64,000 nucleotides of DNA from contig JACRCZ010000074.1 of assembly GCA_016218765.1 (NCBI GenBank), positions 5,827 to 69,826 of the forward strand. Reading direction: 5' to 3'. Both the position numbers and the translations under genes were made by a program. Source of the stretch: Deltaproteobacteria bacterium (GTDB taxonomy: Bacteria > Myxococcota_A > Polyangia > DRWM01 > JAAZOP01). Of the stretch, positions 6,955-62,300 are shown one piece after another. The notes below the pieces were generated by a model, which saw only the letters and a program-made list of their open reading frames with translations, did not search any database and had not been told where the DNA came from. Positions within the stretch are counted from its first letter, which is position 1; the number at the start of each line of letters is the position of its first letter.

Positions 6955-6971
6955 TCTTGGGCCGCCCTCCC

Positions 6972-7196: not shown

Positions 7197-7260
7197 CGCT
7201 GCTCCGGCCTCCTCGCCGGGCGCCGACCGATACCACGCAGGCCTCCGCCGCACCACCCCC

Positions 7261-7375: not shown

Positions 7376-7465
7376 CTCCTTCCACTTTCTCCCCTTTCGC
7401 GCGAACTCATGCGACGCCCGGGCCATGGGGTCCGCGTCCGAACCTCGCGGACGGGAGGTGGAGAC

Positions 7466-8479: not shown

Positions 8480-8482
8480 CGA

Positions 8483-9568
8483 CTACCGTATCCGCTTCTC
8501 GGCCCGGCTCCACCCCGGCGCCGCCTCGCGCAACACTTCCTCGCACGTGCGCGCGAATGGCGTGTCGGCCGGGTAGTCCTTCATCTCGGGGCCCAGCTCC
8601 GAGACGGGGAGCGGCAGCGGCGGTTGCTCGTCATCGCCGTGCCAGATCCAGAAACTGCGGCCGTTGAGCGCCTCCTCGAGGTTCCGCGCGAATCCGGTGG
8701 CGTCGTCCGCCAGCTCGGGATTCTCCGCGGCATCCGTCAGGCACAAGTACGCCAGCGCGTGGAAGAACGGCGCGCGAAGCTCGGCAGGGCCGCGACGCGG
8801 CCACCACCACCGGGACGCCGCCAGCAGCGCCAGGTTGAAATGCGCCTCGGGACGACCGGGATCGCGACGCACGAGGCGCCGATACAACCCCGCCGCGCGG
8901 TTCCCCTCGCCCTGCCCCGCCATCGCCGCCGCCCGCAACAGATCGCCCTCATACGATCCCGTCAGCGGCTCGGCCAACTCGAGCACGCCTGCCCAATCAC
9001 CCGCCGCGAGACAGATCGCGGCCAGGTTCGTGCGCGCCGTGTCGTCCGCCTCGTCGAACCCGTCGCGCAGCTCGTCGAACAGCCGCGCCCCGCCGTCCGC
9101 ATCGGCCTCGAGCCACTCCGCCGGAGCCTCGGACGCCAGGAGACGCAACGGCTTCGCCCCCTGCTCCACGCACGCCCGCGCCTCATCGCCCGAGGCGTGC
9201 GTCCGCGCCACCACGGCCGCACAATCCCGCCACGCGGCGTCTTTCCAATCACTCCACCCCGCCAAGCCCTGCCCCGTCGCCGCCCGGAAACTCTCCTCAT
9301 CGTCGCTCGAAGGCACGTCACAGATCGAATACGAGTCGCGAACCTCCTCCGCGAGCCCCACGATGCGGCGGTACGCCGCGATACGCTGCCCCGGGGGCGC
9401 TTCCTCGTCGGCCGCGTCGGCGTCCGCATCCTGAAGCTCGGCGCTCAGCCGGTCGACCGTTTCCGCCGGCAGCGTCGCCGGATTGTATCCCCCGCACGGC
9501 TGCGCCGATGCTGCACGCGGGAGGATGAACGCCACAAGCGCCAAGAAGCACGAAGCAACCCGAAGCAT
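8483..9568 (-). CDS. Secreted TPR-containing protein
   Basis: Signal peptide ending AASA-Q; TPR-like YRRLVRRDPGRPEAHFNLALL. Alternative start 9604. Confidence 0.65.
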   Translation of the reverse strand: MLRVASCFLALVAFILPRAASAQPCGGYNPATLPAETVDRLSAELQDADADAADEEAPPGQRIAAYRRIVGLAEEVRDSYSICDVPSSDDEESFRAATGQGLAGWSDWKDAAWRDCAAVVARTHASGDEARACVEQGAKPLRLLASEAPAEWLEADADGGARLFDELRDGFDEADDTARTNLAAICLAAGDWAGVLELAEPLTGSYEGDLLRAAAMAGQGEGNRAAGLYRRLVRRDPGRPEAHFNLALLAASRWWWPRRGPAELRAPFFHALAYLCLTDAAENPELADDATGFARNLEEALNGRSFWIWHGDDEQPPLPLPVSELGPEMKDYPADTPFARTCEEVLREAAPGWSRAEKRIR

Positions 9569-19804: not shown

Positions 19805-20718
19805 CAGGGCACGGCCGCCGTCCCCGCCCCGACCGTCACGTCGAGCTCCTCGGAACGCAGCCCGGCGGAGCCGGGCACCCGCGGCAGGTCGCCCTCGAGA
19901 CGCACGCGGACGACGGGGAGCTCGGTCGTGAAGTCGAAGAGGGGGAAGACCAGCTCCTGCGTGGTCTCGCCCACCGCCAGCTCGACCGGGACACCGTCCG
20001 ACGAGTACGGCGACTGGTGATGGATGTAGGCCTGTCGCTTCAGCTCGGCGCCGTCGGGGCCCGACAGCACGACGCTCACGCCGTCGAAGACCGAGGCGAA
20101 GTTCGTCCGGACGGTGATCGGTCCGGACGCCAGGCTGCGGAGGGTGGCCTGGCAGCGGACCTGCAAGCCGTGCTCCTCCGGGACGATCTCGATCCGGGCG
20201 ACCTCCAGCGCGACGGGGACGGGCGCGGCGTTCTCCGGACAGCTCGTGTCCTGCGGGCAGCCCCCGAAGCCGGAGGGGGAAACACCCCGGGCGTTCCCGG
20301 GCATCTGCGCGCAAGCCGTGCTGCAGTAGCCGTCGAAACAGCGCGCCTTGGACTGGCACGGCAGCGGCGGCGCCGGCGGCGGGCCGAGCGGGCACTCCAC
20401 GTCGCGACATGCCTCGGACTCCAGATGCCGCCGCAGCCACTCCTGGTAAACCCGCGTCTGGGGGGCCGGCCAGATGCTGGGCTGGCAGCAGCCGTCCTCG
20501 GCGACGAGCATCGCGCAGGTGCAGTCGGCCTCCGTGGCGCAGGCCAGCGGATCGGGCGAGTCGGGGGCCAGAAGGTAGCCGTCCTCCCACCGCGTCCCGG
20601 ACGCCGGAGACTCCGCCGTCGCCCGGTCCGCCGTGCCGCCGGGGGGCCGTGGACCACCGCGTCCGGAGCAGGCCGCAAGCTGCACGAAGACCACCATGAT
20701 CCACGCGATCTTCCACAT
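19804..20718 (-). CDS. Hypothetical lipoprotein with Cys-rich N-domain and Ig-like C-domain
   Basis: MWKIAWIMVVFVQLAA-C lipobox; stop overlaps the decarboxylase ATG (TGATG). Confidence 0.75.
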   Translation of the reverse strand: MWKIAWIMVVFVQLAACSGRGGPRPPGGTADRATAESPASGTRWEDGYLLAPDSPDPLACATEADCTCAMLVAEDGCCQPSIWPAPQTRVYQEWLRRHLESEACRDVECPLGPPPAPPLPCQSKARCFDGYCSTACAQMPGNARGVSPSGFGGCPQDTSCPENAAPVPVALEVARIEIVPEEHGLQVRCQATLRSLASGPITVRTNFASVFDGVSVVLSGPDGAELKRQAYIHHQSPYSSDGVPVELAVGETTQELVFPLFDFTTELPVVRVRLEGDLPRVPGSAGLRSEELDVTVGAGTAAVP

Positions 20719-20832
20719 GGACACGAACCTACCACATTCGCGCGCGAGCCGCCGCCTTGCGGGTGCGGGATCCGCGTGCTACCTACAAGGAGCTTCGACG
20801 GAGCCGAGTCCGATGCAACGAGGAGGGATGCC

Positions 20833-23502
20833 ATGACGTCGCGTGTTCGAACGGTGTGCTGGACGGGCGCCCTTGCGCTGGCCGTGGCGGCGTGGGGCTG
20901 CGGGTCGACCGGTGGGGACTCGGCGGAGGACGCCGGCGACGACGTGCTCGACGTCGTGGGCGACGAGCCGGACGGTCCCGGCGACGGCGAGGCGACGCGG
21001 GAAGACGCGGAGACCGGGGAGGGATCGGACGACGGCCGCGACGAGTCGGCCGACGACGGGACGGACGGCGAGGTCCCGTGCCTCTGCGCCGCGGACACCG
21101 ACTGCGACGACGGGCACTCCTGCAACGGCGAGGAGCGCTGCGTCGATTGCGCCTGCCTCCCCGGGACCGCGGCGGTCGACGGGACGGCGTGCGACGACGG
21201 CGATCCGTGCACGGAAGGCGAAGCGTGCGCGAGCGGCGATTGCGCCGGGGGTGCGGCCATCTGCGCCTGCGAGACGGACGACGACTGCACGGCGCACGAC
21301 GACGGCGACCTGTGCAACGGATGGCTCGTCTGCGTCGGCCGCCGCTGCCTGCTCGATCCCGGCACGGTCGTCTTCTGCGATCCGTCGGGCGACACCGAGT
21401 GCCTGGTCAACACCTGCGCGCCGGGCACCGGCGACTGCGCGCCGCAGCCGGTGCGCGAGGGCCTGTCGTGCGACGACGGCAACGAGTGCACGGCCGGGGA
21501 CGCGTGCGCGGACGGCGCCTGCGCCGGCGGGGCCTCGACCTGCGAGTGCACGAGCGACGCCGATTGCGCCGCGTACGAGGACGGCGACGCGTGCAACGGC
21601 ACGCTCCACTGCGAGGCGAACGCGTGCGTCATCGATCCGGCGACGATCGTGACGTGCGACCCGGGCGGCGACACGGACTGCCGCGTGAGCCTGTGCGACC
21701 CGGCCGACGGGACGTGCTCGCTGGTCCCGCGTGCGGACGGCACGACGTGCGACGACGGCAGCGCCTGCACGCTCGCCGAAGCCTGCGCCGCGGGCGTCTG
21801 CACCGGACCGGCCCGGTCCTGTGACGACGCGGACGTCTGCACCGACGACTCGTGCGTCCCGGCGACCGGATGCACCTTCACGAACAACACCGCCGCCTGC
21901 GACGACGGCAGCGCCTGCACCGCCGGCGACGTCTGCAGCGGCGGCGCCTGCGCCGGGACGGCCATCGTGTGCAACGACGGCGACGTCTGCACCGACGACG
22001 CGTGCGACCCGGCCACGGGCTGCACCTTCACCGACAACTCCGCCGCCTGCGACGACGGCGACGCCTGCAGCGGCGGCGACATGTGCGCGGGCGGCGAGTG
22101 CTTCGGCGAGCTGATCTTCTGCGGCGACGCCAACCCGTGCACCGACGACGGCTGCAATCCCGCCACCGGCTGCACGTTCACCAACAACACCGCCGCCTGC
22201 GACGACGGCAACCCCTGCACCGCCCCGGACGCCTGCGCGGGAGGAAGCTGCGCCGGCACGCCCCTGGGCGGGACGGTCTGCGGCTTGGAATGCGTGGACA
22301 CGCAGACGGACGAACGGCACTGCGGAGGCTGCGTGCGGCCGTGCGTGTGGGACGAGGAGTGCGCGGCCGGCGCCTGCCGCCCCCGCCCGTGGGAGCGCGT
22401 GGGCGCCGCCGTGAACCCCCTGCTCCCGGCGCTGGCCCACGCACTGGGCACGAACGGGGCGACGCCGTACGTCGCCTGGGTCGCCGACGAGACGCAGGAC
22501 AACGTGTACGTGCACTCGTACGCCGCCGCGACCGGCTGGACGCAGCTCGGCGCGCGCCTGACCACGGGAATGGTCTCGGCGCAATCCTACGTCGATATCC
22601 AGTTCGCCGCCGGAGCGCCCTACGTCGTGTACTACGAGCCGCCGTCGATGCCGCCCGGGAACCCGTACCACGTGAAGAGCTGGGACGGGACCGGCTGGGT
22701 CGAGGTCGGGACGCCGGGCTACCGCTCGCCCTGCGTGATGCACTGGGCGGTGTCGCTGGCCATGGAGGGGACGAACCCGCACCTCACGGACATCGGCGCG
22801 GGGGGCTGCGGGATCGGCGTCGGCTACGCGCGGTGGACCGGCGCCGCGTGGTGGGAAACCCCGTCGCCGCCGGGCCCGATGCTCGGGCTGCTCACGATGA
22901 GCGGCGGAGGATGCTCGGACGTCGTGTGGAACGGGCCGGCCTCCCGGTCCCTGGTGGCACTGATCGACAGCAACCAGCGGCGCGTGCGAACCTGGATCGC
23001 CGCCCCCGCCCCCGGCGCCTGGACCGACCTCGGCGGCAGCCTGAACATGGGCGCGGCACCGATCTCCGGCCCCGGCGGAGACTTCCTGTCGATCGCGGTC
23101 GACGCGGCCGGCGTGCCGTACGTCGCGTTCTCCGAGGTCGAGGGCGCCGGCGGCGGATCGCGGGGGGTGTTCGTCAAGCGCTACGATCCGGCCGGCACCG
23201 GATGGACGCGGGTCGGCGCGGGCCGGATCAGCACCGCCGGCAACGCCGCGGACTTCCCCTCGATCGCCTTCGTCGACGGCCGGCCGCACGTCGCATTCGT
23301 CGAAACCACGGCGGGCGTGGGCCTGGTCCTGGTCCGCCGCTGGAACGGCACGGCCTGGGAACGGGTCGGCGCGCCCCTGAACGAGAGCAACCTGACCAGC
23401 GCCGCGATGCCGTACCTCGTCGCGATCGGGACCGTGCCGGCCGTGGCCTTCCGCGAGCCGGCGGCCGGCACCTCGCGCGTCTACGTCAAGCGCTTCCCCT
23501 GA
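20833..23502 (+). CDS. Cys-rich repeat surface lipoprotein with C-terminal beta-propeller-like domain
   Basis: AGGAGG RBS; LAVAAWG-C; many CDDG(N/D)xCTxxDxC repeats; CVDTQTDERHCGGC; repeated PYVAF/W...W blades. Confidence 0.85.
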   Translation: MTSRVRTVCWTGALALAVAAWGCGSTGGDSAEDAGDDVLDVVGDEPDGPGDGEATREDAETGEGSDDGRDESADDGTDGEVPCLCAADTDCDDGHSCNGEERCVDCACLPGTAAVDGTACDDGDPCTEGEACASGDCAGGAAICACETDDDCTAHDDGDLCNGWLVCVGRRCLLDPGTVVFCDPSGDTECLVNTCAPGTGDCAPQPVREGLSCDDGNECTAGDACADGACAGGASTCECTSDADCAAYEDGDACNGTLHCEANACVIDPATIVTCDPGGDTDCRVSLCDPADGTCSLVPRADGTTCDDGSACTLAEACAAGVCTGPARSCDDADVCTDDSCVPATGCTFTNNTAACDDGSACTAGDVCSGGACAGTAIVCNDGDVCTDDACDPATGCTFTDNSAACDDGDACSGGDMCAGGECFGELIFCGDANPCTDDGCNPATGCTFTNNTAACDDGNPCTAPDACAGGSCAGTPLGGTVCGLECVDTQTDERHCGGCVRPCVWDEECAAGACRPRPWERVGAAVNPLLPALAHALGTNGATPYVAWVADETQDNVYVHSYAAATGWTQLGARLTTGMVSAQSYVDIQFAAGAPYVVYYEPPSMPPGNPYHVKSWDGTGWVEVGTPGYRSPCVMHWAVSLAMEGTNPHLTDIGAGGCGIGVGYARWTGAAWWETPSPPGPMLGLLTMSGGGCSDVVWNGPASRSLVALIDSNQRRVRTWIAAPAPGAWTDLGGSLNMGAAPISGPGGDFLSIAVDAAGVPYVAFSEVEGAGGGSRGVFVKRYDPAGTGWTRVGAGRISTAGNAADFPSIAFVDGRPHVAFVETTAGVGLVLVRRWNGTAWERVGAPLNESNLTSAAMPYLVAIGTVPAVAFREPAAGTSRVYVKRFP

Positions 23503-38261: not shown

Positions 38262-39185
38262 CTACGACACCGGCCGCGGCAGCAGCCCGGCACGCTCGGC
38301 GATCTCCGGTACGCGGTGCTCCCACTCGATCGCCATGAGGTGCACGCCGGAGACGCCTTTCATCGCCCGCAGCTCCGCGATCTGCTCGCACGCGATGCGA
38401 ATGCCCTCGTCCGCGACCTGCTTCTTCGGCACCCCGCCCAGCCGCCGGAGCAGCGCCTCCGGCACGTCCATCCCCGGCACCTTCTGCTGCATGTACGTCG
38501 CCATCGCGACGCTCTTGAGCGGCGTGATGCCGGCCAGGAGGAACACGCGGTCCAGCACGCCCAGCTCGCCGGCCTGGTCCACGAACTCGGCGAAGCGCTT
38601 CATGTTGAAGACGCACTGCGTCTGCACGAAGTCCGCCCCGGCCCGCACCTTCTTCGCCAGCCGCCGCGCCCGGAACTGCGGCAGATCCGCGAAGGGGTTG
38701 GCCGCGGCCCCCAGAAAAATCCGCGGCGGCGTCTCCACCGGCCGGCCGGAGAGGAACTTCCCGTCGTCCCGCATCCCGCGCACCGCCTGCAGGAGCTGCA
38801 ACGAATCGATGTCGTAGACGCTCTTCGCCTCGGGATGGTCGCCGAACTCCTGCAGGTCGCCCGAGAGGCAGAGCAGGTTGCGAATGCCGTTGGCGGACGC
38901 GCCGAGCACGTCGGCCTGCATCGCCAGCCGGTTCCGGTCGCGGCAGACCATCTGGTACACCGGCTCCAGGCCCTCCTGAAGCGCGATCAGCGACGCGCCC
39001 CAGCTCGACATGCGCACCACCGCGGTCTGGTTGTCCGTGACGTTGACGGCATCGACCCGCCCGCGCAGGAACGCCGCCTTGCGCCGCAACGCCTCGACGT
39101 CGGCCCCGCGCGGCGGCCCCAGCTCCGCGGTGAAGGCGAAGTGCCCCGCCCGCAGGACGCGCTCCAGGTTGCTCCCGGCCTTCAT
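38262..39185 (-). CDS. metF: Methylenetetrahydrofolate reductase, MetF subunit (anaerobe type)
   Basis: TAELGPPRG, NVTDNQTA, CRDRNRLA, LSGD, KKVRAGADFVQTQ, GVHLM. Confidence 0.95.
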   Translation of the reverse strand: MKAGSNLERVLRAGHFAFTAELGPPRGADVEALRRKAAFLRGRVDAVNVTDNQTAVVRMSSWGASLIALQEGLEPVYQMVCRDRNRLAMQADVLGASANGIRNLLCLSGDLQEFGDHPEAKSVYDIDSLQLLQAVRGMRDDGKFLSGRPVETPPRIFLGAAANPFADLPQFRARRLAKKVRAGADFVQTQCVFNMKRFAEFVDQAGELGVLDRVFLLAGITPLKSVAMATYMQQKVPGMDVPEALLRRLGGVPKKQVADEGIRIACEQIAELRAMKGVSGVHLMAIEWEHRVPEIAERAGLLPRPVS

Positions 39186-39472
39186 CCGCCGCCCACCAGC
39201 ATCGTGATCGCCAGCACGTCGCCCTCGCCCAGCGGCCGGTCGAGCTGATCGCGACGCAGCCAATCCCGGTTGTTGTGCACGATCTGGAACGACAGGTCGA
39301 GCCTCCCCTGGTCGTCGAGCAGGAAGCGGCGGAGCCCGTCGCCGCCGCGCGCCGCGAGCGCACGGACGGCGTCGGCCACCGTGCCGCCGTCGACGTCGAG
39401 CGGCAGCGACCTTCCGCCCGCGAGCTTCGCGGCATTGGGCAGCCCGAGGAACTCGACCGTCACGCGGATCAT
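39182..39472 (-). CDS. MoaD/ThiS-family ubiquitin-like protein
   Basis: 96 aa beta-grasp pattern, LGEGDVLAI, C-terminal VGGG; overlaps both neighbours. Confidence 0.9.
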   Translation of the reverse strand: MIRVTVEFLGLPNAAKLAGGRSLPLDVDGGTVADAVRALAARGGDGLRRFLLDDQGRLDLSFQIVHNNRDWLRRDQLDRPLGEGDVLAITMLVGGG

Positions 39473-39969
39473 CGCCCCGCCAGCAGCTCCGCGCCGGAGC
39501 GATCGGCCTCGAGCAGCCGGCGCGCGGCGACGCGGCCCTTCCCGATGCCGACGTCGCCCGGCTCGGCGTACGTCACCGCGTGGACCTCGCAGAACCTCGC
39601 GCACTGCGGCTCGCCCTCGCACAGGTCGCACTTGATCACCTTGCGCTCCGAGGGGACGAAGTGCATCGCCCCGAACGGGCAGACGGAGACGCAGGTGCGG
39701 CAGCCGATGCACTTGTCGTAGTCGACGGCCACCGCGCCCAGCGCCTCGTCCCGGGCGATGGCCTTGGAGGGGCAGGCCTTCTGGCACGGCGCGTCCTGGC
39801 ACTGCTGGCAGGCCATCGGGACGTAGACGCCCTCGCCCTCCCACTTGATGACGCGGATGCGGCTCTTGGTCGGGTTGGAGACCCCGTGGTGCCGCACCGC
39901 GCACACCAGCTCGCAGAGGCGGCAGCCCGTGCACTTCTCGTGGTCGATCTGCAGCAGCTTGTGGCTCAT
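39469..39969 (-). CDS. 4x[4Fe-4S] electron-transfer subunit (DmsB/HydN/AorA-like)
   Basis: CTGCRLCELVC, CQQCQDAPCQKACP, CIGCRTCVSVCP, KCDLCEGEPQCARFC. Confidence 0.93.
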   Translation of the reverse strand: MSHKLLQIDHEKCTGCRLCELVCAVRHHGVSNPTKSRIRVIKWEGEGVYVPMACQQCQDAPCQKACPSKAIARDEALGAVAVDYDKCIGCRTCVSVCPFGAMHFVPSERKVIKCDLCEGEPQCARFCEVHAVTYAEPGDVGIGKGRVAARRLLEADRSGAELLAGR

Positions 39970-39980
39970 GGCGCGCCTCC

Positions 39981-41921
39981 TCACATCACCCGCGAAGGCT
40001 CGCGGTCCAGGCCCAGCCGCGCGAGCGTCTCGGGCTTGGGCACGCCGTCGGCGTCGAGGCCCTTGTGCACGTAGAACTCGTCGACCATCTTGTCGAAGCG
40101 CTCGCGGTCGATCTTCAGGCCGACGACGCCGGGGGCGCCCCGGCGGCACGGCTCGTCGAAGTAGCGGTGGTTCAGCATGTCGCCCTTGCGCGTGTCGCGC
40201 CGGGTCAGTCCCTCGCGGAGGTTGAACAGCCGCTCCATCATGTTGGCGCGCTCGGCGACGTCCCAGATCTCCCGCGGCGTGAACTCGAGGCCGGTGTTGA
40301 GCCGGATGACCGCCGGCCAGTCCTCGAAGTTGGGGTGCGTCGCGCCGAGGAACACCGTGTGGTACTTGCAGATGCCCAGGCAATCGACGGCCATGTAGCA
40401 GTTCTCCTGCCAGAAGACCTGCCAGGGCTTGCCGATGTACTCGGTGTGCTCCGAGCTGAGCGGCCCGTCGTAGGGCACCGGGCTCCCGTAGATCTTGCGC
40501 AGCACGGGCTCGGGCAGGTGGTAGAGATCGATGGCGGGACGGCTGCGCAGGTGGTCGGAGCCGCGCGAGGCGGTGGCGATGTTGAGCGCCAGGCCCGGCG
40601 TCGCACGCTCGTCGGAATGCAGGTTGCTCATCCCCTTGACCTGGATCAGGTAGTCGAACGAGTTCTTCCCAATGGCCTCGCTGGCGGCGAGGCCGCCGTC
40701 GGCCAGCGCGTTGGCCAGCCACCCGTCGCGGCGGCAGATGCGGTGGATCATCTCGAGGAGGGCCTCGTCGTTGCCGAACCGCAGCTCAAGGCCGCCGGTC
40801 TGCTCGCGGTCGATGATGCCCAGCTCGTACAGCTCCATGGCCCACGAGATGAGGCTTCCGATCTCCAGGTTGTCCACGCCGTACTGGTCGACGAGGTGGT
40901 TGCCGACCAGGACGGTCTCCGCGCTGCGGCAGTCGGGCTCGCCGGCGAACGCGCCCTGCGAGGTGTACTCGGGACCCTCGTCGTACTTCCCCTTGTAGGG
41001 GCCGGAGGGGATCTTGTACTGCGCGCGGCAGTGGACCTGGCAGGCGTAGCAGCCGGTCATGTGGTACGGACCCATCGTCTCGGTCGCGATCTCGTCGATG
41101 CGCTCAGGCTCGACGTCGTCGGCGTACTCGAGCTGGTTGTACTGGAAGTTGCGGGTGCGCACGCCGCCCCAGGAGTTGGTGGCGCCCCAGATGAAGGGGG
41201 TGCCAAGCGTGCCCTGGGTCTGGTTGACCTTGGAAGAGGTGATCTGCTCGATGAAGCGCTTGTTGTGCTCCAGGGCCTCGACGGGATGCGCGATGCGGAT
41301 GTCCATCGTGCCGCGGGCGGCGACGGCCTTGAGGTTCTTGGAGCCCATGATGCAGCCCATGCCGGTGCGGCCGGCCGCGTTCTTGATCCCGGTCATGACG
41401 TTGGCGAAGCGGACGAGCCTCTCGCCGGCGGGACCGCAGACCAGGCTCTTGACCTCGTCGTCGCCCAGCTCCTCGCGGATCGCCGCCTGCGCCTCCGTGG
41501 TCGTCTTGCCCCAGACGCGCGCGGCATCGCGGATCTCGATCCTGCCGTCGTGGACGTAGAGGTAGACCGGCTTGGGAGACCTGCCCTTGATGACCAGGTG
41601 GTGGAACCCGGCCCAGGCCAGCTCGGGCGCGAAGAAGCCGCCCATGTTGGCGGAGCCGACGAGGCCGGTGAGCGCGGATTTCGCCATGACGTGCGTGCGC
41701 GCGGTGGCCGAGGCGCAGGTGGCGGTGAGCAGGCCGCCGGAGATGAGCAGCACGTTGTCGGGGCCGAGCGGGTCGGCGCCCGCAGGCACGTGGTTGTAGA
41801 GCAGGTAGGCGTCCAGGCCGCGGCCGCCGAGGAACCGGCGGCGCATCTCGAGCGGGATGGGCTGGACGCTGATCTCGCCCGTGGTGAGGTTGACGTATCC
41901 GATCTTCCGGGAAAGAGGCAT
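39981..41921 (-). CDS. Aldehyde:ferredoxin oxidoreductase-family (tungstopterin, WOR) catalytic subunit
   Basis: LGGRGL, KSALTG, GPAGERLVRFA, GRTGMGCIMGSKNLKA, CYACQVHC, DQYGVD, RGSDH, GICK. Confidence 0.95.
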   Translation of the reverse strand: MPLSRKIGYVNLTTGEISVQPIPLEMRRRFLGGRGLDAYLLYNHVPAGADPLGPDNVLLISGGLLTATCASATARTHVMAKSALTGLVGSANMGGFFAPELAWAGFHHLVIKGRSPKPVYLYVHDGRIEIRDAARVWGKTTTEAQAAIREELGDDEVKSLVCGPAGERLVRFANVMTGIKNAAGRTGMGCIMGSKNLKAVAARGTMDIRIAHPVEALEHNKRFIEQITSSKVNQTQGTLGTPFIWGATNSWGGVRTRNFQYNQLEYADDVEPERIDEIATETMGPYHMTGCYACQVHCRAQYKIPSGPYKGKYDEGPEYTSQGAFAGEPDCRSAETVLVGNHLVDQYGVDNLEIGSLISWAMELYELGIIDREQTGGLELRFGNDEALLEMIHRICRRDGWLANALADGGLAASEAIGKNSFDYLIQVKGMSNLHSDERATPGLALNIATASRGSDHLRSRPAIDLYHLPEPVLRKIYGSPVPYDGPLSSEHTEYIGKPWQVFWQENCYMAVDCLGICKYHTVFLGATHPNFEDWPAVIRLNTGLEFTPREIWDVAERANMMERLFNLREGLTRRDTRKGDMLNHRYFDEPCRRGAPGVVGLKIDRERFDKMVDEFYVHKGLDADGVPKPETLARLGLDREPSRVM

Positions 41922-41922
41922 G

Positions 41923-42186
41923 TCAGCGGCCCTCCGTCTTGCGGCGCAACGCCTCCTCGGCGAGCTTGCGGTTCACGTCCCAGACCGGGCCGCGGATGCG
42001 CGGGAAGTCGGCGCGGATCCAGTGGACGCGGAACTCCATCCCGCACTCGGGGCACTTCACCTGCGCCTCCCCCGCCCGCGGCTGCAGCCGTCCCATGCAG
42101 CTCGGGTTGTGGCAGCGGAACTTGCCGTAGGTCCGCGTCTCGCGCAGCGCCTCGGCCGTGGATCGCTTTCCGTTCTCTTCGGCCAT
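41923..42186 (-). CDS. Small zinc-ribbon protein, first gene of the WOR operon
   Basis: GAGGAG RBS; CHNPSC...CPECG; stop lies 1 nt before the WOR ATG. Confidence 0.8.
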   Translation of the reverse strand: MAEENGKRSTAEALRETRTYGKFRCHNPSCMGRLQPRAGEAQVKCPECGMEFRVHWIRADFPRIRGPVWDVNRKLAEEALRRKTEGR

Positions 42187-42199
42187 GGTCAACTCCTCA

Positions 42200-42372
42200 A
42201 GTCACCGGAATGAACGAGCCTCGGAGGCCATCGGACAACAAGCCCTGGCGTCTTGTCAACACGTTTCTTCAACATCGACTGGTACCATCTGATATCAGAT
42301 GCAATCTGGCTTGACTTCAATCCGGATTGGTCTATCGTCCGCTTGGCGGTGCATGTTCACCGGGCTGAACGA
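42200..42372. promoter_or_regulatory. Divergent promoter region with operator-like palindromes
   Basis: AT-richer than flanks; perfect palindrome CATCTGATATCAGATG (42286-42301); GTTCA-N6-TGAAC (42355-42370) and a related box at about 42201-42216; TTGACT at 42311 (+) and TTGACA at 42254-42259 (-). Confidence 0.65.
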
Positions 42373-43130
42373 TGGGCAAGAGCTACCAGGCACCGGTCGT
42401 GGGAAAGGCGTTCGCGATCCTCGAGGTTCTCTCGCGGCGCGACGGGGGTCTGACGGTGAGCGAGCTGGCTGCCGCGGCGGGGCTCGGCAAGAGCACCGCG
42501 CTCGGCATCCTTTCGGCGCTCGAAGGGGTCCGGGCGGTCGAGCGCGATCCGGCCACGCGTCGGTACGTCCTGGGGTTGGGGCTGTTCGAGCTGGGCCGCG
42601 CGGTCGACGCGCGGCTCGACCTCAAGGACGTCGCCCGCCCGATCCTCGGGCGGCTCATGGATCAGAGCCGCCAGTCGGTGTTCCTGGGCGTGCGCGCGGG
42701 CGAGCACGTGACGGTGGTGGACGTCGTCGTGTCGCGCGCGGACCGGGAGGTGGCGGCCCCGGTCGGGACCCGCCTGCCGCTCCTGGCCGGGGCGACGGGG
42801 AAGGCCCTCCTGGCCTGCCTGCCGGAGGCCGAAGCCCTGGCGCTGGTGCGCAAGAAGGGGCTGCGGCGGTTCACGACGCGCTCGATCACGGAGCCCGAGC
42901 GCTACATGGAGGCGTTGGCCGAGGTGCGGCGCAACGGCTTCGCCTTGGACGACGAGGAGTACCTGCAGGGCGTGCGCGCGGTCGCGGCCCCGATCCTCGC
43001 CGGCGGCGGCCGGGCCGCGGCGATCTGGGTCGTGGGGTTCACCTCGAGCATGGACGGCGACCGGTTCGCGACCGTCGCGCGCGAGACGAGGCTGGCGGCG
43101 GAGGCGGTCGGGGCGAAGCTCAGGCCGTAG
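42372..43130 (+). CDS. IclR-family transcriptional regulator
   Basis: VGKAFAILE...LGKSTALGIL HTH; GATGKALLA; NGFALDDEEYLQGVRAVAAPI. Confidence 0.95.
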   Translation: MGKSYQAPVVGKAFAILEVLSRRDGGLTVSELAAAAGLGKSTALGILSALEGVRAVERDPATRRYVLGLGLFELGRAVDARLDLKDVARPILGRLMDQSRQSVFLGVRAGEHVTVVDVVVSRADREVAAPVGTRLPLLAGATGKALLACLPEAEALALVRKKGLRRFTTRSITEPERYMEALAEVRRNGFALDDEEYLQGVRAVAAPILAGGGRAAAIWVVGFTSSMDGDRFATVARETRLAAEAVGAKLRP

Positions 43131-43140
43131 GAGCATCACG

Positions 43141-43524
43141 ATGTCGTATTTCCGGGTGAGCGAGACGTGCAACGGGTGCCTGGCCTGCGTGCAGAACTGT
43201 CCCGCGCGGGCTCTCGACGCGCGCGACGAGGGCGACCGCCGCATCCTCCTGCACAACATGGCGCGTTGCGCGCGCTGCGGGACCTGCTGGCGCGTATGCC
43301 CGCAGCACGCCGTCGAGTTCCAGCACATCCTGGTCAGCTCGTGGGACGAGGTCGTCGTCCTGCCGCTGCTTCGCTGCGAGATCTGCGGCGAGGCCGTGCA
43401 CACGGCGAGGCTGCCTGCGGGGCTCGAGCCGCGACTGTCCGAGCTGGCGCCGCCGCTGTGCGATCGGCACCGGGCGGCGCGACGGGCGGCGCAGCTCCGG
43501 GTGCCGGCGGGAGGGGCGTCATGA
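43141..43524 (+). CDS. 2x[4Fe-4S] ferredoxin-like protein with extra C-terminal CxxC...CxxH site
   Basis: CNGCLACVQNCP, CARCGTCWRVCP, CEICG...LCDRH. Confidence 0.88.
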   Translation: MSYFRVSETCNGCLACVQNCPARALDARDEGDRRILLHNMARCARCGTCWRVCPQHAVEFQHILVSSWDEVVVLPLLRCEICGEAVHTARLPAGLEPRLSELAPPLCDRHRAARRAAQLRVPAGGAS

Positions 43525-44195
43525 TCGTCGGCGACCTGAAGACCTTCGACGAGATCGCCGGGTCGCTCGCCGGCTTCGAACGGGTCCTGGTGCTCGGCTG
43601 CGGCGGCTGCGTGACGGTCTGCCGCGCGGGCGGGGACGCCGAGGCGCACGACGTGGCGCGCGAGCTGTCGCACCCCCGCTGGTTCTCGCGGTCGGCGCCG
43701 CCGCTCTTCGAGGTGCGGACGATCGAGCGGCAGTGCGAGCACGACCTGCTGCGCGCGTTCCTGCCGCTGCCCGAGGGCACGCAGGCGATCCTCTCGCTGG
43801 CCTGCGGCGTCGGCGTGCAGATCGTCGCCGACGTTTTCGAGCCGTTGCCCGTGCTTCCGGCGTTGTCCACGACCTTCCTGGGCGGCTCCGACGAGCCCGG
43901 CGTGTGGCGGGAGAAGTGCAAAGGCTGCGGCGACTGCCTGCTCGCCACCACGGGCGGGGTCTGCCCCATCGCGCTGTGCGCGAAGAGCCTGCTCAACGGC
44001 CCGTGTGGCGGCTCGCACGACGGCCACTGCGAGCTCGGCCCCGACATCCCGTGTGCCTGGGTCCGCGTCTACCGGCGTCTCGAGGCCCAGGGCCGTCTTG
44101 ACCTGCTCGACGAGGTTCGCGGGACCCGCGACTGGCGCAAGGCGGGGTATCGGGGACCGAGAAGGCGATCACGCACGGGCGTAGCGCTGAGGTGA
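43521..44195 (+). CDS. metV: Methylenetetrahydrofolate reductase Fe-S/Zn subunit MetV
   Basis: GCGGCVTVC, RQCE, SLACGVGVQ, CKGCGDC...GGVCPIALCAKSLLNGPCGGS...CAW; ATGA overlap with the upstream gene. Confidence 0.92.
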   Translation: MIVGDLKTFDEIAGSLAGFERVLVLGCGGCVTVCRAGGDAEAHDVARELSHPRWFSRSAPPLFEVRTIERQCEHDLLRAFLPLPEGTQAILSLACGVGVQIVADVFEPLPVLPALSTTFLGGSDEPGVWREKCKGCGDCLLATTGGVCPIALCAKSLLNGPCGGSHDGHCELGPDIPCAWVRVYRRLEAQGRLDLLDEVRGTRDWRKAGYRGPRRRSRTGVALR

Positions 44196-44269: not shown

Positions 44270-45319
44270 TCAGCGCTTCAGCGCATGACCCAGGATCCCC
44301 AGTCCCTCGCGCAGGCACGATTCCTCCGCCGACCATGAAATCCGCATCGTGCCGGGGACGCCGAAGAAGTGGCCGGGGGCGAAGAGCAGGCCGTGGCTGG
44401 CCAGGAGGCGCTCGGCCAACGCCAGCAGGTCGGGCGGGTCGGCGACGCGGATCAGGCCGAAGATGCCGGCCGAAGGCTCGACCCACGACAAGCGCGGGTG
44501 CGCCGCGACCCAGCGCGCCACGACCGCCCGCTTCTCCGCCGACGCCATCCGTCGCGCCCGCTCGGCCAGCGCCGGGAGCGTCAGAGCACGCCTCGCCCAG
44601 GCCGCGCTCGACGGCGCCAGCACCGACAGAGTCACCTGCGCGTCGCGCGCCCGGCGCACGACGTCGGCCGGACCCGCGAGCCACCCACCGCGCGCCCAGC
44701 CGAGACCCTCGAACTTCGTCACGCTGTCCGCGACCAGGATCCCGCGGTCGGCCCGACGGCACGACGGCGCGCCGTGGAAGCGGTGATAGACCTCGTTGAC
44801 CAGCAGCCGGGCGCCGGCCTCGCGCGCGACGGCCGCCACGGCGGCGATCGTCTCGGGCGCCGAGAACGTCCCGGTCGGGTTGTTGGGCTCCGTGACGATC
44901 ACGAGCCTCGTGCCCGGGCGGAGCGCGGCGCGAACGACGTCGGGCTCGAGCTTCCAGTCCGCCTGCTCACGCCGGTCGAGGCGATCGACCGCGGCGCCGA
45001 AGGCGGCCGGGATGTGCTCGAGCGGCTCGTAGGCGGGGCGTTCGACGAGCGCCCGGTCGCCGGGCGAGAGCAGGGCGGCGCAGGCCAGGGTCATGGCGCC
45101 CGTCGCGCCCGACGCCGCGGTCACCTCGTCGGCGCCCCACCCTTCCCTCTCGGCGACAAACTTCGAGAGTGCTTCCCACGTGCAGAAGTCGTCGACGACC
45201 TCGGGCGCGCCGACCTCGGCGGCGCCGATCCTCGGCGTGCCGCTCGTGGCCAGATCGCAGCGCAGGTCGTGGTACTTGGAAATGGCCCAGTTGAGGTACC
45301 CGGTGGCGGTGACGGTCAT
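44270..45319 (-). CDS. PLP-dependent aminotransferase class I/II-fold enzyme
   Basis: VERPAYEPL, PNNPTG, VNEVY, SVTKFEGLGWARGGW, APGHFF, MRIS. Confidence 0.9.
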   Translation of the reverse strand: MTVTATGYLNWAISKYHDLRCDLATSGTPRIGAAEVGAPEVVDDFCTWEALSKFVAEREGWGADEVTAASGATGAMTLACAALLSPGDRALVERPAYEPLEHIPAAFGAAVDRLDRREQADWKLEPDVVRAALRPGTRLVIVTEPNNPTGTFSAPETIAAVAAVAREAGARLLVNEVYHRFHGAPSCRRADRGILVADSVTKFEGLGWARGGWLAGPADVVRRARDAQVTLSVLAPSSAAWARRALTLPALAERARRMASAEKRAVVARWVAAHPRLSWVEPSAGIFGLIRVADPPDLLALAERLLASHGLLFAPGHFFGVPGTMRISWSAEESCLREGLGILGHALKR

Positions 45320-45527
45320 GGGGCGGAGGAAACGTCCGCCAGGGACGAATGTCAACGGCGAGGCGACCTGGGCCGCGGGAAGGCCGTCCGTTGCCGGCCC
45401 GCCGATTCGGCTTGCGCGGCACGTTTCGGCGTGCTACCCAGCCGGCGCCACGTCCGGGATCCGGAATGTCATGCGCTCGGACGGTCGGCAATCATGTCTC
45501 GGAGGGGGCGGGGGGGATGGAGGCGCC

Positions 45528-48695
<3,168 letters not shown>

Positions 48696-58288: not shown

Positions 58289-59347
58289 ATGGCGGTTCGG
58301 TCGGTGGTGCTGATCGCGGGGTTGATCACGGCGGGCGGCTCCACGGCGCTCGCGCAAGAGAGCGAGAGAGAGGGCGGGGGAGCGGCGAGCCTTGAGCTGA
58401 CCGACGAGGTCGACCTGTCGGCGGCGCCGGAGGACGACGAGGAGCAAGCGGCGCCCTGGCGCGGGTCGGAGTTCGTCTGGCGCAACGTCATGAGCGCCGC
58501 GAGCCTCGACCCGTCCTACGAGCTGACCTGGAACCCGTACTACGCGATGGCGTTCACCTTCCGGGCCCGGTGGTGGTTCGACGACATCTTCAACGTCGGC
58601 GCGCGGCTGGACGTGACGCGCGAGTTGACGCAGGCGGACGACACGACGTTCATCGACGAGGCGCTCCTGGAGGACCTGGTGATTTCGGCGGGGGCGTCCA
58701 AGTTCTACACGATCCCGGTCGCGGGCATCGATCTCTCGGCCGACCTGCTGCTCACGACGCCGACGAGCAAGATCTCGCAGGCGCGGACGCTGGTGCTGGG
58801 GATCGGGCCGGGGGTGAGCGTGGGGCGGACGTTCGACGCGATCGGGCCGCTGCGGCTTTCGTATCACGTGCGGACGACGGGGCTCTTGCACCGCTACACG
58901 ACGGCGGAGCGCGAGACGCCGCTGATTCAGGGGTGCGGCGCGACGGAGGGGGGCTGCGACTCCTTCCTCAACACGGGGCTGCGCAACGTGCGGTTCCGCG
59001 TGGCGCACGGCGTGGACGTCTCGTGGGACCCGCTGGAGTGGTTCGGGGTGTCGGTGGGCTTCGAGCACATCGTCGACTGGCTGCACCCGATCGACGGGAG
59101 CGACCCGCGGGTAACGTTCGAGACGGAGCCGAACACCGACGAGCGGCAGCGGTCGGCGTTCGGGGTCGAGCTGACGTTCACGCCGATTTCCTCCTGGCAG
59201 ATCGGTTTGGGCTACGAGACGGTGAGCCCGCAGCTCAAGCTCGACTCGACGTACGAGAACCCGTTCTACAACCGGTATTCGACGGTGTACCTGGATTTGC
59301 GCCTGGAGTTCGACGGGCTGGTCGCTGAGCTCACGGGCGAGGGGTAG
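58289..59347 (+). CDS. Probable outer-membrane beta-barrel protein
   Basis: Signal ending ALA-Q; alternating amphipathic strands rich in aromatic residues; GGAGG RBS. Confidence 0.7.
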   Translation: MAVRSVVLIAGLITAGGSTALAQESEREGGGAASLELTDEVDLSAAPEDDEEQAAPWRGSEFVWRNVMSAASLDPSYELTWNPYYAMAFTFRARWWFDDIFNVGARLDVTRELTQADDTTFIDEALLEDLVISAGASKFYTIPVAGIDLSADLLLTTPTSKISQARTLVLGIGPGVSVGRTFDAIGPLRLSYHVRTTGLLHRYTTAERETPLIQGCGATEGGCDSFLNTGLRNVRFRVAHGVDVSWDPLEWFGVSVGFEHIVDWLHPIDGSDPRVTFETEPNTDERQRSAFGVELTFTPISSWQIGLGYETVSPQLKLDSTYENPFYNRYSTVYLDLRLEFDGLVAELTGEG

Positions 59348-59358
59348 GAGTGCGGAAC

Positions 59359-62300
59359 ATGACGAGGAAGACGTGGTGGTTGGCGTTCGGGACGCTCGCG
59401 GCCTGCGCCGCGCCGTTGGCCGGCTGCATGGACGAGCGGCCGGCGATCGATCGGGTGCAGCCGCTGGCGTTGCGCAAGGCGTACTTCGTGGGCGAGGACC
59501 TGCAGGGCGCGGCGGACGATCCCGTGTTCTGGACGCAGGGCACGCTGATCGACGTCGGGTACGGCGCCGCGCAGGACGGACTGTTCACGTCGACCTACGC
59601 CCAGCCGGTGTCGCGGCTGCGGTGGCAGATCACGGAGGACCTGCTGATCGGGCGGCTGGCCTACGAGCGGGTCGAGGGGACCGACGGGAAGGGAGCCGGC
59701 CACGCGACGGAGGACGGGGTCGTCGTCGTCGCCTATCCGATCGAGAGCCACTTCGACATCATCTACGCCTACAACCCGACGACGGGGGAGCGGCTCAACA
59801 TCAAGGAGGAGAACACGACGGATCGGCCGTGGTACCAGCGGGAGTACTTCCGCGTCGACTGGTCGAAGAACCTCAACGCGGACAGCTACGACTTCGACAC
59901 GCTCTCGCTGCTCGGCGTCTACGGCGGCATCACCTACCAGCCGCTGGCCTACGACGTCACGGACCCGCAGGACCCGAACGCGCCGGTGTTCGACCTGGAG
60001 CACGGGTACTTCGACGTGACGAACAAGGCCTTCGCGCAGCCCAACGTCATCGACCTCAGCCAGCTCGGCTGGGGCATCGACTCCTTCCCCGCCTGCTTCC
60101 TGGACGCGGACTTCTCCGGCGGCACCTACCCCTCCGGCTCGTGCAACCCGGTCGAGCTGACGATCCGGCAGTCGTTCCGGCGGGTGGAGAACAGCGACTT
60201 CGAGCCCAAGGACTGGGACGGAATCCGCTTCCAGGCGTACGGCGGGTTCTACACCGACCGCTACGGCTACGCGCGCAACTACGGGATGAGCGACGACCTG
60301 TGGCGCCGCTTCCTGAACCACCACCAGATCTGGGAGCGCACGCACTTCTACGCCGACCCGCAGACCATGGAGGGACCGATCGAGTGCTACACGCCGTCCA
60401 CGACGCCGTTCGGCAAGGAGCCGGACCGTGACGAGCTGGGGGCGGACGGGAGCGCGGGGGCGAACGGGACGGAGGACGAGTGCGAGGCGGCGGGGGCGGG
60501 CTCGCGCTGCGACACCTTCACCCAGCGCTGCACCCTGCCCTACGCGCAGCGCACGACGCGCACGCTGCCCTGGTACTTCACGCACGACAGCGATCAGGAG
60601 TTCTTCCTGCCGACGAAGTGGGCCGCGCACCAGTGGGACATCGCGCTGCGCATGGCCGTGCGGGCCTCGCAGTACGCCGAGTGCCAGGCGACGGGCGGGG
60701 CGGACTGCGCGTCGCGCTTCCCGGTGCTCACGGGTCAGCAGGAGGAGTACGAGGACGCGATCGCGCTGGCGGCGGAGGTCGACGACTGCCGCGACGCCGG
60801 ACGGGCGGACTGCGACGGGCTGGCGGACGAGCTGGCGGCGGCGCGCGGCTACGGCCCCGCGATCGTCTCCCTCTCGCGCATGCCCGACATGGTCGTCTTG
60901 TGCCACAGCCCGGTCGAGGCCTCCGACCCGGTCGGATGCGGCGGCCCGCGGCTGCCGGAGGGAACGACGGCCGAGCGGTGCGAGGCGGCGTACGACGACG
61001 GGCTGGCCGATCCCGTGCTGCTCGAGACCTGCCGCGCGGCGCTCAACGTGCGGCGCGGCGACCTGCGCTACCACCAGGTGAACGTGATGCCGGAGCCGCA
61101 GTCGCCGTCGCCGTGGGGCATCATGGTCGACTCGATCGACCCGCTCACGGGCGAATCGATCGCCGCGAGCATCAACGTCTGGGCGTTCGTCAACGACATC
61201 TGGAGCCAGGACGTGGTGGACAAGCTGCGCTACCTGCGCGGCGAGTACTCGACAGCGGACGTGACGAACGGCACGTACGTGCGCAACTGGACGATGGCCG
61301 CCCAGGCCGCGTCCGGCGGCGGCGCGCTGCCGATGATGACGCGCGAGGAGCGCGACCGGCGGCTGGCCGACTTCGCCGGCGGGCCGGTCGTCGACGCGGC
61401 CGAGGTGCCCGCGGAGCTGGCGGGCCAGATCCGGTCGCTGGACCGCGAGCTGCGCGAGGTGCGCTCGAGCCTCGGGACGGCGTCGTCGAACGCGGCGATC
61501 TACGAGGCGCGGCGGCGGCAGGCGCGGGGGACGGAGTTCGAGGCGGAGCTGATGACGCCGATGGTGCAGGAGCTGCACGGCGTCAACGGACTGCCGCTGA
61601 ACGACGCGCTGCTCGATGCGGCCTCGCCGCTGCGCGGCGGGCATCCGGAGTTCCGGCTGGAGATCGCGCGGCTGAAGGAAGAGGCGCTCGCGAAGCGCGG
61701 GGCCTGCATCCTGCACCCGGACGAGGCGGAGGCGCCGTTTTCGCTGACGGGGCTGGCGTCCGTGCTCGAGGCCAAGTTCGGCGCGTTCAACCCCGCCGAC
61801 GACCCGGCGGTCCAGCAGGAGCGTGCCGAGCGCATGCGCCGCTACGTCGCCCTGCGGGCGCACTTCGCGGTCATCGGCCACGAGATGGGGCACTCGATCG
61901 GCCTGCGGCACAACTTCATCAGCTCTTCCGACGCCTGGCAGTACCGCCCGCAGTACTGGCAGCTCCGCACGCGCAACGGCGACGTGACGACGGAGTGCGC
62001 CGAGCTGGCCGCGGACGGCGCGACGTGCGTCGGGCCGCGCTACTTCGATCCGGTCACCACCGAGGAGCGCGACAACCTGATCTGGATGTGGATGCAGTCG
62101 TCGATCATGGACTACGCGGGCGAGGCGACGCAGGACCTGATCGGCCTGGGGATCTACGACTTCGCCGCCACGCGCATGCTCTACGGCGAGACGGTCGCCG
62201 TGAACGCCGAGGAGCGCTTCCGCGACGGAACGGTGCTCGGCAACGCCCTGCTCGACCTGGAAGACACCTTCGGCGGCATCCTCGGCCTGGGCTTCGTGCT

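Follow-up and report, generated by a model that had tools for sequence, protein, structure and literature searches.

A tungsten-type oxidoreductase operon divergent from a ferredoxin–MetV operon: a candidate electron module for methylenetetrahydrofolate reductase in a Deltaproteobacteria bacterium

Genes and proteins of the divergent locus

We analysed a 64,000-nt stretch of DNA from a Deltaproteobacteria bacterium (contig JACRCZ010000074.1), hereafter the window, in which two divergent operons at 38262-44195 bring together a catalytic subunit of the aldehyde/tungsten oxidoreductase family (AOR/WOR; the window protein is called WOR below) and both subunits, MetF and MetV, of a methylenetetrahydrofolate (methylene-THF) reductase. 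The minus-strand operon consists of five genes encoding, in order, a Zn-ribbon protein, the WOR, a polyferredoxin, a MoaD-like protein and MetF, and the plus-strand operon of three genes encoding an IclR-family regulator, a ferredoxin-like protein (Fdx) and MetV (Table 1). An earlier note on this DNA had listed the same eight genes and described the minus-strand operon as tightly coupled. Both descriptions stand. The eight genes all lie at the coordinates given; by these, start and stop codons overlap at the polyferredoxin/MoaD, MoaD/MetF and Fdx/MetV junctions, and the remaining intergenic gaps are 1-11 nt. The metV and metF genes are non-adjacent, being about 4.3 kb apart on opposite strands. 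A domain search of the cluster and its flanks found no Hdr, Mvh or Rnf domains, again as the note had it. The GC content of the window (about 72%) gives rise to numerous spurious open reading frames (ORFs); the real frames were picked by GC at the third codon position, which is 0.90-0.96 in the coding frames of the cluster. Family assignments were confirmed with Pfam and NCBIfam, and the MoaD-like and Zn-ribbon proteins alone fall below curated cut-offs.

Table 1. Features of the divergent locus, in window positions
Feature	Position	Strand	Properties
Zn-ribbon protein	41923-42192	-	89 aa; no Pfam/NCBIfam family above cut-off; WOR operon gene 1
AOR/WOR catalytic subunit	39981-41921	-	646 aa; PF02730 1.3e-71, PF01314 1.5e-96
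Polyferredoxin small subunit, 4x[4Fe-4S], AorA-like	39469-39969	-	166 aa; 16 invariant Cys
MoaD/ThiS-like protein	39182-39472	-	96 aa; C-terminal GG; ThiS 1.1e-3, SAMP1 1.7e-7, below cut-off
MetF, methylene-THF reductase catalytic subunit	38262-39185	-	307 aa; PF02219 9.6e-37; WOR operon last gene
Divergent intergenic region	42193-42371	.	palindrome and sigma-70-like site
IclR-family regulator	42372-43130	+	252 aa; N-terminal HTH_IclR PF09339 1.1e-12, effector domain PF01614 5.8e-37
Ferredoxin-like protein (Fdx)	43141-43524	+	127 aa; 2x[4Fe-4S] and C-terminal Cys3-His motif
MetV, WOR-specific subfamily	43521-44195	+	224 aa; PF12225 1.5e-34

The AFOR_N (PF02730) and AFOR_C (PF01314) domains span the full length of the WOR and lie far above their cut-offs, which places the protein in the AOR/WOR family. 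When a profile built from 18 orthologs was compared with solved structures, the closest relatives were the AOR of P. furiosus (1aor, 1.3e-106), 9mqx_D (1.5e-102) and AorB of Aromatoleum (8c0z_A, 7.2e-89). The match to BamB was weaker (5.3e-75) and partial, covering profile positions 9-425, against full length for the P. furiosus enzyme. Among the ligands of the proximal [4Fe-4S] cluster, C291, C294 and C298 are shared by all 79 orthologs; candidates for the fourth ligand are C508 and C518, which are also invariant, and C514, which is present in 77 of the 79. A BamB-like dearomatising reductase was considered as the identity of the WOR and set aside as less likely, since P. furiosus AOR, 9mqx and AorB all match better and over the full length.

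A 2025 review describes four second-shell residues that are conserved in aldehyde-oxidising AORs, namely Thr243, Glu313, Tyr427 and His448, the last three being universally conserved in the AORs known to it (PMC12096430). The Thr (T241) and His (H457) are retained in the clade of the window WOR. The Glu313 position is occupied by Thr320 and the Tyr427 position by Ser436 in all 79 orthologs, an assignment that is consistent at both positions against 1aor, 9mqx_D and 8c0z_A and at the Glu313 position against 1b25. Invariant residues His435 and Asp456 adjoin these second-shell positions and may compensate for the residues that were lost. The BamB and YdhV clades have an additional Cys ligand to the metal and have lost the second-shell residues. 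In the window clade only two of the four second-shell residues are missing and no invariant Cys is seen near position 320, the column of the ligand itself lying outside this comparison. The window genome, which is 79.6% complete in 154 contigs, contains five AOR-family matches, and the paralogs on contigs C94 and C50 retain the Glu and Tyr. A further paralog on contig C7, at 1999-4017 on the minus strand, has none of the four second-shell residues in the alignment and may be a BamB/YdhV-like protein or belong to another clade.

Because two of the four second-shell residues are replaced, an aldehyde substrate is not assured for the WOR; 'aldehyde' is the family default, and the reaction may not be an ordinary aldehyde oxidation. 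The same applies to the substrate that the earlier note had IclR sense, if this is taken to be of the aldehyde type. Tungsten at the active site is likewise assumed from the family. The note had also looked to tungstate transport, and here WtpA (TIGR03730) was not found in the 79.6%-complete genome; TupA was not searched.

The polyferredoxin contains 16 Cys residues that are invariant in 39 of 39 orthologs and sufficient for four [4Fe-4S] clusters. Its solved relatives are, best first, AorA (8c0z_C, 1e-39) and 9mqx_E (6.5e-36). In the Zn-ribbon protein, C27, C32, C47 and C50 together with a PRIRGPVW motif are invariant throughout the 30 aligned orthologs, with residue 3, a Met, as the probable true start. 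Searches of Pfam and NCBIfam gave no named family for this protein, and the Atlas returned hypothetical-protein clusters only, mostly from Thermodesulfobacteriota. The MoaD-like protein parallels AorD/AorE, and its gene probably serves cofactor maturation.

Fdx is distinguished by two sets of invariant residues, each conserved in 29 of 29 sequences: eight Cys (C10, C13, C16, C20, C43, C46, C49 and C53), which correspond to two clusters, and a C-terminal motif formed by C79, C82, C107 and H110. Its gene lies directly upstream of each WOR-linked metV whose contig extends far enough. In 18 fetched paralog regions, Fdx was absent beside MetVs outside WOR loci, bar one weak 52-residue match in region L106. 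The family is narrow, with 10 representative clusters of 83-194 aa at E<=1e-30 in a profile search, and no informative Fdx fusion occurs among these 10 specific clusters. We also noted a second AorA-like polyferredoxin gene between iclR and fdx at L013:4939-5418 and in about ten other loci (L015, L020, L022, L029, L033, L034, L038, L044, L045 and L048); in L020 a truncated AOR paralog is found in the same interval.

MetV has the domain typical of its family (PF12225) and the accompanying Cys set: 13 Cys positions are common to WOR-linked MetVs (26-28 of 28 per position) and other MetVs (14-15 of 15 per position). The window protein is 51-95% identical to WOR-linked MetVs and 33-47% identical to the other MetVs that were fetched. 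A Foldseek search of its AlphaFold2 model (AF2; mean predicted local distance difference test score, pLDDT, 76.2) against the Protein Data Bank (PDB) gave no match at E<=1e-3, and a sequence search found no solved MetV either. The TIM barrel of MetF covers profile positions 2-287 of 287 of PF02219, identifying it as a methylene-THF reductase (MTHFR) domain protein. Residues E21, D110 and Q190, which we take to be equivalent to the catalytic and folate-site Glu28, Asp120 and Gln183 of E. coli, are invariant in 14 of 14 WOR-linked MetFs and in alignment coincide with the FEFFPP, LRGD and ITQ motifs of the Thermus MTHFR (1v93). Overall, MetF is about 70% identical to many annotated MTHFRs and 54-67% identical to Hdr-linked MetFs.

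The earlier note had regarded the two subunits as a split MetF/MetV pair, and this did not hold. The window genome has exactly two MTHFR and two MetV matches, and the second pair, on contig C152 (about 1-5620), is of the ordinary kind: a very large HdrA-like fusion whose N-terminal part is 2Fe-2S/NuoG-like, MvhD, MetV and MetF are encoded co-directionally with metV and metF adjacent, an arrangement that corresponds to the Hdr/Mvh-linked type IV of PMC8760232. The window MetF is 55% identical to the C152 MetF and the window MetV 43% identical to the C152 MetV. The window MetV comes instead from a separate, WOR-specific subfamily accompanied by Fdx. The window MetV and MetF are a paralog set and not a split canonical pair.

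The regulator belongs to the IclR family, having both the N-terminal DNA-binding domain and the effector domain; within NCBIfam it comes closest to BhcR, at 8.1e-46 and below cut-off. The divergent intergenic region contains, at 42286-42301, the perfect 16-nt palindrome CATCTGATATCAGATG, which lies 10 nt upstream of the -35 element of a sigma-70-like site at 42311-42338 on the plus strand. Comparison with 18 orthologous intergenic regions showed no conservation of the palindrome; some of those regions have GTTCATTATAATGAAC instead. We regard it as a candidate operator, and IclR probably controls both divergent operons.

Recurrence of the cluster and history of its parts

Searching genome contigs with the WOR returned 519 relatives. 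Synteny was counted at the best 80 of these 519 loci, whose WORs are 75-97% identical to that of the window, with flanks taken to 7 kb; many contigs are short, and the subset with both flanks of at least 6.5 kb (n=24) provides the fairer comparison. The 80 loci derive from Thermodesulfobacteriota (Desulfobacterales, Syntrophales and Desulfatiglandales), Acidobacteriota, Aminicenantes and unclassified 'Deltaproteobacteria' metagenome-assembled genomes (MAGs); L029 carries the label of a Desulfococcaceae strain. Two counts were made, one by local tblastn at E<=1e-5 and one under stricter identity and length thresholds (Table 2). Taken together, they define a core of Zn-ribbon protein (75-76 of 80 loci), WOR (80) and polyferredoxin (77-79), to which the remaining genes are added at lower frequency.

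Table 2. Genes found near the WOR at the best 80 of 519 loci
Gene	tblastn, of 80	Stricter count, of 80	Stricter count, of 24 long-flank loci	Remark
Polyferredoxin	79			
Zn-ribbon	76			
IclR	49	47	17	
Fdx	41	26	11	tblastn count includes weak matches
MetV	26	25	11	
MetF	10	9	4	long-flank loci: plus partial copy in L031
MoaD-like	6	37	15	tblastn: window type; stricter: either type (window or L017)
EutA-like		29	9	
GltD-like		5	4	

The exact layout of the window was found again in L010, a sister MAG that is 97% identical, and in four Acidobacteriota loci (L012, L016, L049 and L064). Four others (L017, L024, L026 and L055) have an alternative, co-directional operon in the order metF-fdx-metV-znr-WOR-polyFd. 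A reverse test, in which metagenome contigs were searched with MetV, returned 28 loci. Eight of these contigs (L112, L115, L116, L118, L119, L120, L121 and L127, of which L115 and L116 resemble mutual copies) extend at least 4 kb upstream, and all eight carry IclR-Fdx-MetV divergent from Zn-ribbon-WOR-polyferredoxin; in five of the eight, MetF follows the MoaD-like gene. At or above 51% MetV identity there are 25 metagenome loci; Fdx is directly upstream in 20 of them, and the remaining five have a short upstream region or a partial match. In L132, where the MetV is 41% identical, there is an ordinary MetV-MetF pair adjoining a GltD-like gene. The earlier note had named synteny unique to this contig as a finding that would refute its reading, and the synteny is not unique. 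The arrangement is seen in numerous further genomes and metagenome contigs, and so cannot be put down to genes adjoining by chance.

We then considered the history of the individual subunits. In a MetV tree of 42 rows, all 27 WOR-linked MetVs form a single clade with a Shimodaira–Hasegawa-like approximate likelihood ratio test (SH-aLRT) support of 100, on a long branch from 14 other MetVs that mostly adjoin Hdr/Mvh genes. The MetF tree (30 rows, 10 WOR-linked) has two WOR-linked clades, one comprising the window, L010 and four Acidobacteriota sequences (98/97) and the other L017, L024, L026 and L055 (100/98). Each is sister to a different Hdr-linked MetF group, and the starred branches force at least two origins. 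Since the two clades are separate and each is sister to Hdr-linked MetFs, MetF was recruited to the cluster twice independently. When group labels were shuffled on the MetV and MetF trees, 0 of 500 shuffles were as tightly clustered as observed. The functional link that the earlier note had drawn between the WOR core and MetV/MetF is backed by the single MetV clade, the double recruitment of MetF and the co-directional operon in four loci.

In the WOR phylogeny that the note had called for, the window and L010 are sister to the Acidobacteriota versions (support 98), and the same relationship is seen for MetF (98/97) and MetV (96). This pattern is consistent with the cluster having been inherited or transferred whole, and makes its transfer in one piece plausible. 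MetV-bearing and MetV-less loci are interleaved on the WOR tree, requiring about seven changes, of which at least two are forced by starred branches. The horizontal acquisition suggested by the note is supported to the extent that transfer as a unit is plausible; the GC content of the cluster (0.685-0.718) falls inside the range of the window (0.685-0.778), and there is accordingly no compositional sign of recent transfer. The 'Myxococcota' labels on the trees follow the NCBI placement of the catch-all 'Deltaproteobacteria bacterium' and give no evidence for a myxobacterial identity, so that the 'myxobacterium-like host' of the note is not backed by them. The contigs L073 and L074, binned as Anaerolineales and Bacteroidales, have near-identical WORs with tip branches of 0.0067, nested in a Desulfobacteraceae group; errors in binning are likely.

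Since most MetV-bearing WOR loci have no MetF within 7 kb, MetF is an optional module, present in the cluster in the window and in the two recruiting lineages. Paralogs were surveyed in five genomes that host MetF-less WOR loci, and 18 regions were fetched from G001-G003 and G005. These five genomes have 1-7 MTHFR and 2-7 MetV matches each, and MetV-MetF pairs outside WOR loci mostly adjoin MvhD and HdrA- or GltD-like giant fusions. The Desulfobacterales-type genomes G001-G003 and G005 (L090-L106) have 4-7 matches of either kind.

Two further neighbours deserve mention as observations in their own right. A EutA-like gene (PF06277, an ASKHA-type ATPase) is present in 29 of the 80 loci (L021, L024 at 6589-8007, L026, L028, L030, L034 at 8087-9565 and 23 further loci), its products being 63-92% identical to the L034 copy. 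In several loci it stands immediately after the polyferredoxin gene, and tblastn did not find it in the window genome. EutA is known as the reactivase of ethanolamine ammonia-lyase, and the EutA-like protein might activate or repair the WORs of this clade. In addition, a homocysteine S-methyltransferase domain protein (PF02574) is encoded directly after the WOR-linked metV at L013:2561-3619 and in L022, L044 and L045. These four loci have no MetF nearby, and the gene is a second hint toward methyl-group chemistry.

Predicted electron path and alternative readings

Starting from the observed gene content, cofactor motifs, recurrent clade-specific co-occurrence and independent recruitment of MetF, we consider a modular, soluble enzyme; its assembly into a complex, its substrate and the direction in which its electrons flow are putative, and the metal is taken from the family. 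Its conserved core would consist of the Zn-ribbon protein, the tungsten-type WOR with its altered active site and the 4x[4Fe-4S] polyferredoxin, the last two being a pair of the AorB/AorA type. The dedicated 2x[4Fe-4S] Fdx and the WOR-specific MetV would lengthen the iron-sulfur chain, and in the window and both MetF-recruiting lineages the MetF flavin would be its end point. The WOR core would thereby replace the RnfC2 or HdrABC-MvhD of known MetVF reductases, and MetF would take the place of the flavoprotein AorC of AorABC. Electrons would run from the low-potential tungsten couple to methylene-THF. By established redox potentials, this direction is favoured, and oxidation of methyl-THF coupled to reduction of an acid is strongly uphill. 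The methylene-/methyl-THF couple is treated as lying well above NADH (-320 mV) in PMC8760232.

That the locus encodes a modular tungsten enzyme whose electrons reach MetF via ferredoxin and MetV is a reading we hold with confidence and doubt in equal measure. The more specific proposal unites the Zn-ribbon/WOR/polyferredoxin core, Fdx, MetV and MetF in a single soluble complex. This would add a fifth type to the methylene-THF reductases, one in which a tungsten centre with a re-tooled active site (Thr for Glu313, Ser for Tyr427) handles a very low-potential couple and wires it to the methylene-/methyl-THF couple. It is tentative, and we judge it possible without leaning towards it. As a general matter, MetV associates physically with MetF: among 47 longer MetV-containing proteins, 45 are fused to MetF, one to FolD domains and one is RnfC-like, and purified MetVF complexes are described in PMC8760232.

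A number of results weigh against an electron path from the WOR to MetF. The replacement of the Glu313 and Tyr427 equivalents means that the WOR reaction is not predictable. Neither the 47 MetV proteins nor the Fdx clusters include a fusion of MetV or Fdx to AOR or polyferredoxin. Under the stricter thresholds, MetV is found in 25 of the 80 loci and MetF in nine, leaving most MetV-bearing loci without MetF within 7 kb, and 13 of the 24 long-flank loci lack Fdx-MetV, some of them having EutA-like, GltD-like or NuoEF/MvhD-like genes instead; one orthologous locus, L072, has NuoE/NuoF/MvhD-like genes upstream. In G004, a genome with a MetF-less WOR locus, the only MTHFR is fused to MetV and encoded elsewhere. 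In L106, HdrB-HdrA-MvhD-MetV are followed by an FrhB-like flavoprotein and not by MetF. The wider metabolic setting points the same way: formyl-THF synthetase (PF01268) and acetyl-CoA synthase (PF03598) were not found in the 79.6%-complete window genome, which gives no backing to the 'anaerobic C1 module' of the earlier note (C1, one-carbon), and acetyl-CoA synthase (PF03598) is present in only two of the five genomes with the window layout. A Wood-Ljungdahl context was rejected for the window genome on the same absence of PF01268 and PF03598 matches, at 79.6% completeness.

Several of these points would be explained if Fdx and the WOR-specific MetV formed a general adaptor for electron entry to, or exit from, the WOR, acting as an extended iron-sulfur connection with a soluble carrier or with partners that vary. 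MetF would then stay outside the complex and be co-regulated with it, its coupling being metabolic and not physical, for example through the supply of methyl-THF during use of the WOR substrate. The lack of MetF within 7 kb at most MetV-bearing loci fits such an adaptor, as do the patchy distribution of MetV on the WOR tree with its roughly seven changes, the FrhB-like flavoprotein that takes the place of MetF beside the MetV of L106, and the alternative modules of other loci (EutA-like in 29 and GltD-like in five of the 80). It fits less well with the two independent entries of MetF and the translational coupling of metF within the operon, or with the finding that each of the 47 longer MetV proteins is a fusion with a folate or NADH module, this being MetF in 45 cases; moreover, genomes without an in-cluster MetF mostly have several MetF paralogs elsewhere that could serve. 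On balance we consider an adaptor without MetF in the complex rather doubtful, while conceding that it has a real chance of being correct.

A different role for MetF is suggested by its position. As metF follows the polyferredoxin and MoaD genes and no AorC-like flavin adenine dinucleotide (FAD) subunit is encoded in the cluster, the MetF paralog might not act on folate at all, serving instead as a flavin subunit of the WOR that stands in for AorC, with NAD(P)+ or some other molecule as the electron acceptor; type I MetF indeed uses NAD(P)H at the same flavin site (PMC8760232). Against this, MetF retains about 70% identity to ordinary MTHFRs and 54-67% to Hdr-linked MetFs, its Glu, Asp and Gln motif residues are invariant, and MetFs of the MetVF type are described as having no predicted NADH site and not using NAD(P)H (PMC8760232). 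We regard this role as improbable. Finally, two unrelated neighbours, that is, a WOR operon ending in a housekeeping metF and a separate IclR-Fdx-MetV unit with no functional link, would suit the opposite strands and the other complete MetVF set of the window genome, but are very improbable given that the co-occurrence recurs across phyla in several gene orders, that the MetV subfamily and Fdx are found only beside the WOR (8/8 long contigs) and that 0/500 label shuffles were as clustered on the MetV and MetF trees.

Returning to the single complex of the WOR core with Fdx, MetV and MetF, this could provide MetF with a direct electron donor or, alternatively, allow Hdr-independent balancing of low- and high-potential half-reactions; a C1 or other aldehyde-level compound, for example, would be oxidised while methylene-THF is reduced. 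If true, a physiological electron partner would be named for a MetVF enzyme. PMC8760232 treats as open questions both the physiological donor of the MetVF type and what serves the Hdr-linked type as second acceptor, and a distinct MetV subfamily with its own Fdx beside one conserved, uncharacterised WOR clade offers a concrete candidate partner. The hosts of this WOR/MetV clade are Thermodesulfobacteriota, Acidobacteriota and uncultured lineages related to them. A real coupling would add a new type of module to both AOR large/small-subunit cores and MetVF reductases, and would matter for the way in which anaerobes keep low-potential electrons and folate-bound C1 units in balance. Even without such a coupling, the cluster offers a well-defined starting point for finding the function of the WOR clade, and the analysis draws attention to a widespread AOR-clade enzyme, with 519 relatives in a single genome collection, that is without the catalytic Glu and Tyr of aldehyde oxidoreductases.

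The genes that flank the cluster encode a Ser/Thr kinase with TPR repeats and a class I/II aminotransferase, along with unrelated housekeeping products such as TamB, Omp85 and HrpB. Elsewhere in the window, four ORFs of 1160-1700 aa (45093-48695 on the plus strand, 782-5872, 20017-23502 and 59266-63885) have no Pfam match at E<=1e-12. The first of them has none at 0.01 either, and GC at the third position is 0.85-0.90 for 45093-48695 and 782-5872. Among the sequencing runs listed for the stretch, all are DNA runs from groundwater and sediment, and no RNA run is included.

Comparison with known systems

A literature search, which included PMC7325909 and PMC11291895 and had supplements outside its range, found no paper that links AOR/WOR with MetVF in the text covered. 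The nearest counterpart of the WOR half is AorABC(DE) of Aromatoleum aromaticum (8c0z; PMC6365974, PMC10413684). In both, a single operon encodes a tungsten-type subunit together with a 4x[4Fe-4S] polyferredoxin and MoaD-like proteins. In the Aromatoleum system AorAB stacks on the flavoprotein AorC and reduces NAD+, and AorD and AorE are MoaD-like putative maturation factors of the tungsten cofactor (PMC6365974). The two differ in where electrons leave. In AorABC they exit via the flavoprotein, whereas the window cluster has AorA- and AorB-like subunits without an AorC-like FAD/NAD subunit (no Pyr_redox/FAD-type subunit is encoded in the cluster) and has MetF, MetV and ferredoxin instead. The gene order is B-A-D in the window as opposed to A-B-C-D-E, and the window adds the Zn-ribbon gene and IclR. 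The replaced equivalents of Glu313 and Tyr427 also set the WOR apart.

Likeness to BamBC of class II benzoyl-CoA reductase (4z3w) extends to the combination of a WOR-family subunit with a polyferredoxin and to a loss of second-shell residues that AORs otherwise conserve, two of the four in the window WOR. Unlike that enzyme, the window cluster has no BamDEFGHI genes and its WOR keeps Thr241 and His457, and the match is weaker and partial. The principle of an AOR-clade protomer with an exchangeable electron module encoded in the same operon is shared with WOR1 of Eubacterium and Acetomicrobium (Wor1LS and Wor1ABC). There the large/small-subunit pair is predicted to join a HydABC-like module (PMC12096430); in the window the module would be Fdx-MetV(-MetF).

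Turning to the reductase half, the window MetF and MetV share with the MetVF enzymes of types II, III (RnfC2-MetVF) and IV (HdrCBA-MvhD-MetVF) the MetF motif residues and the 13 Cys of MetV. In the known types, electrons come from an additional module. MetV stimulates MetF and carries iron-sulfur clusters; electrons are supplied by RnfC2 in type III and by HdrCBA-MvhD in type IV, and the physiological donor of type II is debated (PMC8760232). In types II-IV metV is adjacent to metF, whereas in the window the two genes lie apart. The window MetV also forms a separate clade with its own ferredoxin, and its WOR/polyferredoxin neighbour falls outside the four types described in PMC8760232. The cluster may thus be seen as a MetVF reductase that has gained a new electron module or, with equal justification, as a large/small-subunit core of the AOR kind joined to a new partner.

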